Source of the DNA: Escherichia phage EP01
Sequence record: OM135583.1
Direction: 5' to 3' (one strand)
Length of the DNA: 64,000 nt
In this document: one piece after another, positions 14,959 to 16,353 of the stretch
Numbering within the stretch: the stretch's first letter is position 1
How the letters are laid out: the number at the start of each line of letters is the position of its first letter
Notes under the pieces: model-generated
Database searches by the model: none
The model's input: only the letters and a program-made list of their open reading frames with translations
What the model was told of the DNA's origin: nothing
Translations under genes and position numbers: made by a program

Positions 14959-15738
14959 TTAATTAAAAATATATACTTCATCAGTTCCATTCTTTTCTTT
15001 GGAATGATATATGTTAAAGACATATTTTTTGTTAAGATGCTTAACATTATATTTTTTAGACCATTCTTTAAGAAGAGTGTTTTCCTTTCCGTGATGTTCT
15101 AAAACATTCGACAGCCCAAATTTTATTCCTCTGTCATTTAAAGAATCTAAAAGATTTAAAAGGTCTTTTTCTTCTTCTTCTGACCAAAATTTATTATAAT
15201 CGGCAACTGTTATGAGATATGGAGGATCAACATATACAAAATCACCATCTAGAATTTTGACATCTTTAAAATGCAATGAGCTAAAAATTATTTTATCACA
15301 ATTTTGTTTAAAGTGATTAAAACGTTTTTCACTATTTTTGTTTATGGTTCTTTTTCCAAATGGAGTAGTAAAATTTCCTTTGTCGTTTATGCGAATCATA
15401 TTACTAAACCCATGAAAATGAAGAACATAAAGCAAAAGAGGATCTCTAGTTTTATTATAATCTTCACGTAATTTCAAAAACTCTTCTTTTGATGTTTTTG
15501 ATAATTTGTATTGCTTTATTACTTTTAAAACGTCATCCCATGACACGCTAATAAGACGTTTATACATTTCAATAATTGGTTCTTGAATATCATTAGCCAA
15601 TACAGGACCATCGACATTCAAAGATACTGATAAACCTCCGCAAAATAAATCCACGAATCTGTCATATTTTGGAAAGTGAGACTTAAGTTCAGGTAATAAT
15701 GATTGTTTATTACCTGTATACGCAATAGCTCCTAGCAT
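14959..15738 (-). CDS. dam: DNA adenine (GATC) methyltransferase, 259 aa
   Basis: FCGG SAM-binding motif and DPPY catalytic motif; 259 aa. Confidence 0.95.
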
Positions 15739-16298
15739 TATATTCTCTCATTTATTGCAGCAAAAAACGAATTATATAATTCTTCATCATATGTATTTGA
15801 TAGTAATACTAACACGTTTTGTGATTTAGCATATTCATTAAACCTTGCTTGGATGGTTGGATTATCAGTAAATGATTCTCTTTTTGTCCACTTATTACGT
15901 GGATAATATCCGCATGGCAAAAAATCTAATATCATCAATGACACAGGATTTTCAGTTTTTGTGTATTCTTTTAATTTATCTTTATCTTCCAGATATATTC
16001 CAACCGAATCAATAGCTGTGCCTCCACCAACTTGGTGTTTGATTTCAATTATATGCTTTTTACCATTACGAGCAATAACAATATCAAATCTTCTAGTACG
16101 CTTCTTAGTGGTAAAATTCGAACAAAACAAATTATTTGATTTTTCAGTATCGTCAATTAAAACCATTTTTTCTTGATAATTAACTGAACAATCAGTGAAA
16201 TATTCTTTTACTTTATTAAGTATAAAATTCTCAACTACGGCAGATATTTTATATGAATCTCCGTTTAAAGCCATTTCATGTACAATTTTATTAATCAT
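15738..16298 (-). CDS. PD-(D/E)xK nuclease-like protein, 186 aa
   Basis: [17 protein letters not shown] (D...ExK on two hydrophobic strands); stop overlaps dam start by 1 nt. Confidence 0.6.
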
Positions 16299-16321
16299 TA
16301 TATTATCCTCAGCAGTTTATT

Positions 16322-16353
16322 TTATAATACCACAGCAAGCTGAGAAAGTAAAC
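16322..16353 (-). promoter_or_regulatory. early promoter for the nuclease-like ORF and dam
   Basis: GTTTAC-N17-GGTATTATA. Confidence 0.6.

Follow-up and report, generated by a model that had tools for sequence, protein, structure and literature searches.

The Dam methyltransferases of phages T2 and T4 are among the best-studied DNA methyltransferases and are usually treated as orphans, and their role in a phage with hypermodified DNA has never been settled. In the DpnII system, the nuclease gene adjoins a gene for a Dam-family GATC methylase; enzymes of this family cut GATC and are blocked by methylation. Restriction-modification is also borne by viruses, for example CviAI (GATC) of a chlorella virus and EcoP1I of phage P1, where the methylase protects the virus and the nuclease attacks other DNA. 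Here we describe ORF186, a gene directly upstream of dam in Escherichia phage EP01, found in a 64,000-nucleotide stretch of sequence record OM135583.1 (hereafter the window) that is a segment of a Tequatrovirus (T4-like) genome. Judged by its sequence and predicted structure, ORF186 appears to represent a new, phage-restricted family of PD-(D/E)xK restriction-enzyme-like proteins within a methylase-nuclease cassette. The reading that we favour, tentatively, is that ORF186 may be an active endonuclease, similar to those of type IIP, which together with Dam makes up an early operon of restriction-modification-like character; it would see GATC or a GATC-containing site and cut DNA without the phage's marks.

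The genes of the locus are transcribed from the minus strand in the order gene 61 primase (16600–17628), ORF186 (15738–16298), dam (14959–15738) and gene 56 dCTPase (14380–14913), and the best GenBank match to positions 14800–16700 is Escherichia phage vB_EcoM_HZ_ZJUN4 (97.7% identity). An initial annotation had noted an open reading frame of 186 residues with a D-x12-E-x-K arrangement, and such a frame is indeed present at 15738–16298 (minus strand); it begins with ATG, carries the motif as D72, E85 and K87 and belongs to phrog_8706, whose function is unknown. The same annotation had the stop codon overlapping the dam start by a single nucleotide, and this is what we found: the ORF186 TAA (15738–15740) and the dam ATG (15736–15738) share one base in the TAATG at 15736–15740 (minus strand), where the junction reads GAATATAATGCTAGG, as expected of a translational-coupling junction. 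The dam gene (14959–15738, minus strand) itself is intact, encoding a 259-residue D12-class N6-adenine DNA methyltransferase (Pfam PF02086, 9e-51; TIGR00571, 1.5e-69) with a DPPY motif at 15217–15228 and 97% identity with T4 Dam.

The linkage of ORF186 to Dam is the strongest result of our analysis. In all eight lineages inspected (the window, T2, Dhakavirus MX01, L003, L004-8, L010/L011, L013 and L014), the ORF186 homologue lies immediately upstream of a gene for a D12-class (Dam-family) methylase. The two frames either abut or share 1, 7, 20 or 35 nt, and overlap or abutment is kept in L003, L004, L010, L011, L013 and L014. The sole exception is T2, where a T run that is one base shorter shifts the last seven codons (...NSFLLQ*; L012, 2030–2060) and the frame stops 13 nt short of dam. 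This shortened T run is also seen in the ORF186 remnant of T4, described below. Across these lineages the pair occupies three neighbourhoods, all of which belong to T4-like phages: (i) between genes 61 and 56 in Tequatrovirus, Dhakavirus and L003–L008; (ii) between denB and ndd, near rIIB, in Klebsiella phages, L010 and L011; and (iii) directly upstream of rIIA in L013. Identity to the window falls in parallel for ORF186 and Dam (98/98, 96/99, 62/70, 56/72, 44/62, 37/54 and 34/56%). Thus, because the linkage holds in three contexts and the two proteins diverge in parallel, the two-gene cassette is the unit of inheritance and relocation. Adjacent and co-inherited genes for nuclease and methylase are a mark of type II restriction-modification systems, and the pair displays both features in eight of eight lineages and three contexts; the coupling to dam that had been proposed from a single genome is thereby seen to be conserved throughout the lineages inspected.

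The coding sequence is under purifying selection, with a ratio of nonsynonymous to synonymous substitution rates (dN/dS) of 0.07–0.12 against close relatives at dS 0.06–0.21; together with the conservation, this ruled out a chance open reading frame. In our alignment, no homologue between 98% and ~30% identity departs from E23, D72, E85 and K87. Among the eight full-length sequences the invariant positions include, among others, E23, R69, D72, K81, H82, E85, K87, H88, Q89, G93–S98, P118, S120 and D125.

What kind of protein does ORF186 encode? AlphaFold2 (AF2), run on the eight-sequence alignment, predicts an alpha-beta-beta-beta-alpha-beta topology (predicted local distance difference test score, pLDDT, 81; predicted template-modelling score, pTM, 0.79), which is the core of the PD-(D/E)xK fold; the restriction-endonuclease-like fold put forward in the initial annotation is thus borne out by structure prediction. 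From the N terminus, the model has a helix, a long helix that bears E23 and three strands, of which the second holds D72 and the third both E85 and K87; helices, a strand, a helix, a further strand and a last helix complete it. The predicted catalytic core, D72-x12-E85-x-K87 (16038–16085, minus strand; FDIVI-x7-HIIEIK), spans two adjacent beta strands, with D72 (codon 16083–16085) on the strand of residues 66–77 and E85 (16044–16046) and K87 (16038–16040) on that of residues 80–88, in agreement with the earlier claim that the motif sits on strands. The model therefore has the acidic residue on beta-2 and the (D/E)xK on beta-3 that define the fold, and all three residues are invariant in the eight full-length homologues. 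The invariant acidic residue E23 (16230–16232, minus strand), in the long N-terminal helix formed by residues 15–33 of the model, is a candidate additional metal ligand. Directly after the catalytic lysine follows a family signature, H88-Q89-x3-G93-T94-A95-I96-D97-S98 (16005–16037, minus strand), which is likewise invariant; it falls in a low-confidence loop and a short helix of the AF2 model (mean pLDDT ~50 for residues 91–100) and is a candidate DNA-recognition element.

In structural comparisons, the nearest proteins were type II restriction enzymes. Behind MunI came other PD-(D/E)xK nucleases, among them BstEII, PfoI, BsoBI, Bse634I, BsaWI, PspGI, NgoMIV, AgeI and EcoRI. In Foldseek the E-values were weak, but the best TM-score (0.52) again belonged to MunI. 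A model of the MX01 homologue from BFVD, which was computed independently, superimposes on the ORF186 model with a TM-score of 0.89. The likeness to the MunI/EcoRI-like type IIP enzymes (PDB 1D02) is structural only, the MunI alignment having 13% identity: MunI, whose site is CAATTG, has a different methylase as its partner, whereas ORF186 has its own invariant HQ-x3-GTAIDS. A sequence relationship, with a shared recognition motif, that would place ORF186 with EcoRI and MunI was not found; GTAIDS bears what we take to be a resemblance to the GNAxER motif of EcoRI and MunI, but its spacing from the catalytic lysine differs.

Sequence families gave a fainter signal. No family reaches its curated threshold for ORF186, and NCBIfam yielded chance-level matches only. 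DpnII (PF04556) is the top Pfam family in five of nine members (16.6 bits for the window, 17.7 for P0002, 19.0 for P0003, 19.0 for MX01 and 22.5 for P0009) and has no match in the other four. The register of this alignment is constant, residues ~11–112 falling on the second half of the profile, and the PADLOC model for type II restriction endonucleases matches ORF186 in the same register (E 2.8e-5). ORF186 resembles the DpnII family (DpnII, MboI) both in this weak match over the catalytic core and in adjoining a Dam-family GATC methylase; it differs in having no counterpart to the N-terminal half of the profile, in the order nuclease then methylase, with overlapping codons, and in its confinement to T4-like phages. 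We regard the DpnII signal as a hint of GATC specificity, a lead rather than a sign of family membership.

Several other assignments were considered and set aside. The DpnI-like combination of a catalytic domain with a winged-helix methyl-reader was not found in ORF186. For a nicking role of the MutH or Sau3AI kind, neither enzyme is among the best fold matches. A regulator like the C proteins of restriction-modification systems was rejected because the Pfam scan found no helix-turn-helix domain.

Could the fold belong to a nuclease that has nothing to do with methylation? Such a protein might process recombination or repair structures, break down host DNA non-specifically or act in counter-defence, and its linkage to dam would then reflect shared early transcription. 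We consider this unlikely, for two reasons: (i) the linkage and overlap with Dam survive relocation to two other neighbourhoods and ~65% divergence, neither of which co-transcription alone predicts; and (ii) the nearest structures and sequence families are type II restriction enzymes.

How widely is the cassette distributed? By tblastn, 163 phage records carry an ORF186 homologue, 155 of them at ≥95% identity; the product is annotated nearly always as "hypothetical protein" and once as "putative restriction endonuclease". The distant homologues, from 62% down to ~30% identity, come from Dhakavirus MX01, Klebsiella phages and metagenomic contigs. A scan of metagenome contigs recovered three loci only, all phage-like, and no homologue outside T4-like phage contexts. 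When 1.84 billion representative proteins were searched exhaustively with a hidden Markov model, 11 matches emerged, which were members, fragments of members, one chimeric and one repetitive sequence, with no bridge to a named family; repeating the search by word index with a broader profile brought nothing further. Records with a Dam of ≥90% identity number 181, of which ~155 have the full cassette and ~26 dam only. Thus, in Tequatrovirus-type records, dam is normally accompanied by the nuclease gene, and T4 is the exception. Of 507 records that match the flanks, ~326 are without both ORF186 and dam. In other Straboviridae genera, ~330 records have a Dam of <60% identity and only six, Klebsiella phages included, have an ORF186 match of <60%; most of those Dams therefore stand alone.

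The initial annotation had suggested comparing the dam–gene 61 interval of T2, T4 and T6. T2 has the gene, at 96% identity and annotated as T2_31, in an interval of 846 bp; T4 has an interval of 309 bp, 537 bp less, with only a remnant; and T6 has neither the gene nor dam. In the four-way alignment, T4 keeps about the last 80 nt of ORF186, directly before dam, and lacks ~549 bp between two copies of ATCGCAAA, so that the promoter and about the first 158 codons are gone. In the window, the upstream copy of this 8-bp direct repeat at the end-point of the T4 deletion is ATCGCAAA at 16367–16374 (minus strand), and the downstream copy is ATCACAAA at 15818–15825 (minus strand), which is ATCGCAAA in KarlGJung and T4. 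In KarlGJung (Bas37), a deletion independent of that in T4 has taken 371 bp, the start codon among them, from between copies of GATGATAT. T6 has only ~41 bp where the window has everything from the promoter through the dam stop (16392 to 14919). Miner and Hattman (1988) reportedly described 536 bp that lie 5' of dam in T2 and not in T4 as an "insertion" that showed no homology and was given no function. We take the 537-bp difference between T2 and T4 to be this same DNA, which contains the T2 copy of ORF186. On our alignment the supposed insertion is a conserved gene, and T4 is the deletion derivative of the ORF186-dam arrangement.

Presence in some close relatives and absence from others raises the question of a selfish or homing-type endonuclease. 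Like the Seg and Mob enzymes (segA–G, mobA–E) or addiction-type restriction-modification modules, ORF186 could spread itself and dam in mixed infections by cutting the cassette-less allele or unmethylated related genomes, and like the Seg and Mob genes it is a small nuclease gene between conserved genes that some close relatives have and others lack, T6 being without the whole cassette. Yet the alleles of T4 and KarlGJung are scars between 8-bp repeats, decay products with remnants rather than clean empty sites, and the nuclease always travels with dam, the two having long co-diverged, to 34/56% identity, with no solo hopping. Moreover, the glucosyl-hydroxymethylcytosine of T-even DNA limits the cutting of rival T-evens. 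The fold also differs, PD-(D/E)xK as against the GIY-YIG and HNH of the known T4 homing enzymes, and no GIY-YIG or HNH Pfam match was found in the ORF186 family. We therefore hold this explanation to be rather unlikely. The segF gene, which in T4 lies between 56 and soc, two genes from the dam locus, is absent from the window.

ORF186 was said to have its own early promoter, and a T4-type early element does lie upstream of it (16324–16353, minus strand), with GTTTAC and TATTAT separated by 18 nt and TGTGG directly 5' of the -10 (16353–16324: GTTTACTTTCTCAGCTTGCTGTGGTATTAT). The site is among 18 matches to GTTTAC-N16-18-TANNAT in the window, against 0.62 expected; all lie on the minus strand and most have TGTGGTAT(A/T)AT. 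This pattern resembles what we take to be the T4 early-promoter class, of which the ORF186 site would be a typical member. A generic sigma-70 scan also picks the site (TTTACT-17-TATTAT with TG). In this AT-rich window the scan did not rise above chance (11 sites versus 15.8 expected) and was uninformative, and the phage-specific motif count was used instead. The promoter is kept in T2 and KarlGJung and deleted in T4, as seen in the alignment. Further downstream, the Shine-Dalgarno sequence GAGG (16307–16310, minus strand) can be read 8 nt 5' of the ORF186 ATG.

Two other sequence features accompany the transcription unit. A 6-bp inverted repeat, CTCAGC...GCTGAG (16306–16344, minus strand), flanks the -10 of the ORF186 promoter and the point where transcription starts; T2 conserves this repeat and KarlGJung part of it, and it could be an operator or an arm of a hairpin at the 5' end of the mRNA. 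Inside the 3' end of ORF186 lies a TATAAT (window 15771–15780, minus strand; T4 locus L002, about 3660–3690), preceded by a G in T4, T2 and KarlGJung (TGTATAAT, an extended -10), where the window has TATATAAT. This TATAAT may serve as the promoter of T4 dam now that the early promoter further upstream is gone.

Among the 4-bp palindromes of the window, depletion is by far the strongest for GATC, with 68 occurrences against 210 expected under a second-order model (observed/expected 0.32, z -12); the next most depleted, TCGA, stands at 0.61. Only four GATC sites fall in 14300–17700, and none in ORF186 or its promoter.

The surroundings of the cassette vary among T-even phages in other respects. 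A hydrophobic 66-residue frame (16403–16603, plus strand; phrog_2024, unknown function) is convergent with gene 61 and overlaps its stop by 4 nt. It is kept in T2 ("similar to RB69ORF029w"), MX01, L003 and L006-8 and annotated "dam.1" in T6; its DNA is also conserved in T4, where RefSeq NC_000866 annotates nothing. Gene 61.2 (~200 residues; in T4, T6 and ZJUN4) is absent from the window, in which 61.1 (17632–17796) and sp (17809–18102) are 12 nt apart (17797–17808). Between 56 and soc (13706–13963), at 14186–14380, lie frames of 64 and 69 residues, as in T2- and T6-type genomes (soc.2-like). As to Dam itself, the closest plasmid relatives of the phage enzyme (35–42% identity) are AlwI- and FokI-type type IIS methylases, mostly from Firmicutes, and enterobacterial plasmid Dams are only ~27% identical to it. 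The plasmid genes have as neighbours AlwI-family genes (L015, L018, L026), a FokI-type gene (L016) or unannotated genes for 471 residues (L024, L025), and in L017 no nuclease is listed. These AlwI- and FokI-type relatives explain the label "fokIM" on dam in some phage records.

How might the cassette work? We read ORF186 as an active nuclease because of its fold, its invariant catalytic residues, the selection on it, its linkage to and co-divergence with Dam, the DpnII hint and the depletion of GATC. The protein would be a PD-(D/E)xK endonuclease of the type IIP kind, small, dependent on metal and probably a dimer, made from a two-gene early operon that would run from the promoter through the nuclease to a translationally coupled methylase. 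It would recognise the Dam site GATC, or a site that contains it, and cut DNA without the phage's marks, and Dam methylation together with glucosyl-hydroxymethylcytosine would protect the phage's own DNA. In the cassette the phage would thus carry a weapon akin to restriction-modification, aimed at non-self cytosine DNA inside the infected cell; candidate targets are phages that co-infect or superinfect, plasmids, and host DNA that is unmethylated or under-methylated. It would be dispensable and repeatedly lost, the "orphan" dam of T4 being the remainder after deletion of the nuclease, and T6 would have lost, or never had, the whole cassette. The initial annotation had offered a restriction-modification-like or a methylation-directed partner for Dam; the fold, the coupling and the linkage stood up, and the remainder, namely nuclease activity, GATC specificity, methylation sensitivity and biological target, we infer from the fold, the linkage and the sub-threshold DpnII match.

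A number of points weigh against ORF186 being an active, GATC-specific partner of Dam. The DNA of E. coli carries Dam methylation of its own, and a DpnII-like enzyme would therefore spare the host. More generally, CviAI and EcoP1I differ from the present case, in which a virulent T-even phage has hypermodified DNA to begin with and usually infects a Dam-positive host. Glucosyl-hydroxymethylcytosine shields T-even DNA from most type II enzymes (PMC7653180), and protection by Dam is therefore possibly redundant. With the nuclease first and the methylase second, nothing delays the nuclease, unlike in many cellular systems. The gene is dispensable, being absent from T4, T6 and most Tequatrovirus records. 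On the side of sequence, a profile search of all PDB sequences found no match at E up to 10, and the DpnII match stays below the gathering cut-off of 23 bits and spans only positions 143–233 of the 278 in the profile. Scans of 185,579 bacterial and archaeal species genomes and of 72,556 plasmids brought up no member of the family, which is unusual for a true restriction enzyme. The depletion of GATC is shared by descent with phages that do not have ORF186, and McClelland (1985) reportedly ascribed GATC depletion in enterobacterial phages to other causes. Finally, text searches of the literature turned up no study of the ORF186 protein.

Some of these difficulties would disappear if the nuclease were directed by methylation. 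In a DpnI-like scheme, ORF186 would cut G(m6A)TC in cytosine DNA and not in glucosyl-hydroxymethylcytosine DNA, and Dam, expressed alongside it, would finish methylating host or foreign DNA and thereby mark it for destruction, the modified cytosine shielding the methylated sites of the phage itself. The fold is compatible with this scheme, which would explain the nuclease-then-methylase order without a delay, the early expression and strict need for an adjoining Dam, and why a phage protected by glucosyl-hydroxymethylcytosine keeps Dam at all. On balance we think it quite improbable. A broader formulation, to which we give little credence, makes T-even Dam the marking half of a phage weapon and no anti-restriction orphan: the nuclease would recognise either cytosine DNA that bears the Dam mark or non-phage DNA that lacks it, and would destroy the genomes of host or competitors, the phage's own GATC sites being few and shielded by glucosyl-hydroxymethylcytosine. 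If true, its "mark-to-kill" form, in which the methylase makes the substrate of the nuclease, would amount to a novel principle for pairing a methylase with a nuclease and account for the presence of Dam in hypermodified phages.

Very unlikely, lastly, is a non-catalytic partner that keeps the fold to bind DNA or regulate, for instance as a GATC-binding protein or as one that adjusts the expression of dam by way of the coupling: translational coupling would let translation of ORF186 set Dam levels, and the promoters of T2 and T4 dam and their methylation levels are said to differ (Miner and Hattman, 1988), but E23, D72, E85 and K87 are all invariant, where inactivated nuclease folds usually lose such residues, and neither the Pfam scan nor the model has a helix-turn-helix or other regulator domain.

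What would an active restriction-type nuclease next to dam mean for T-even phages? The "orphan" T-even Dam looks like half of a restriction-modification-like gene pair, and the natural genotypes of T2, T4 and T6 are "both", "methylase only" and "neither", respectively. If the nuclease is active, ORF186 and its homologues would form a family of restriction-type enzymes known only from virulent phages, and a sequence-specific, methylation-linked tool would be added to those with which T-even phages attack the DNA of hosts and rivals. Its activity may also help to explain the classical differences among T2, T4 and T6 in methylation and in mixed infections.

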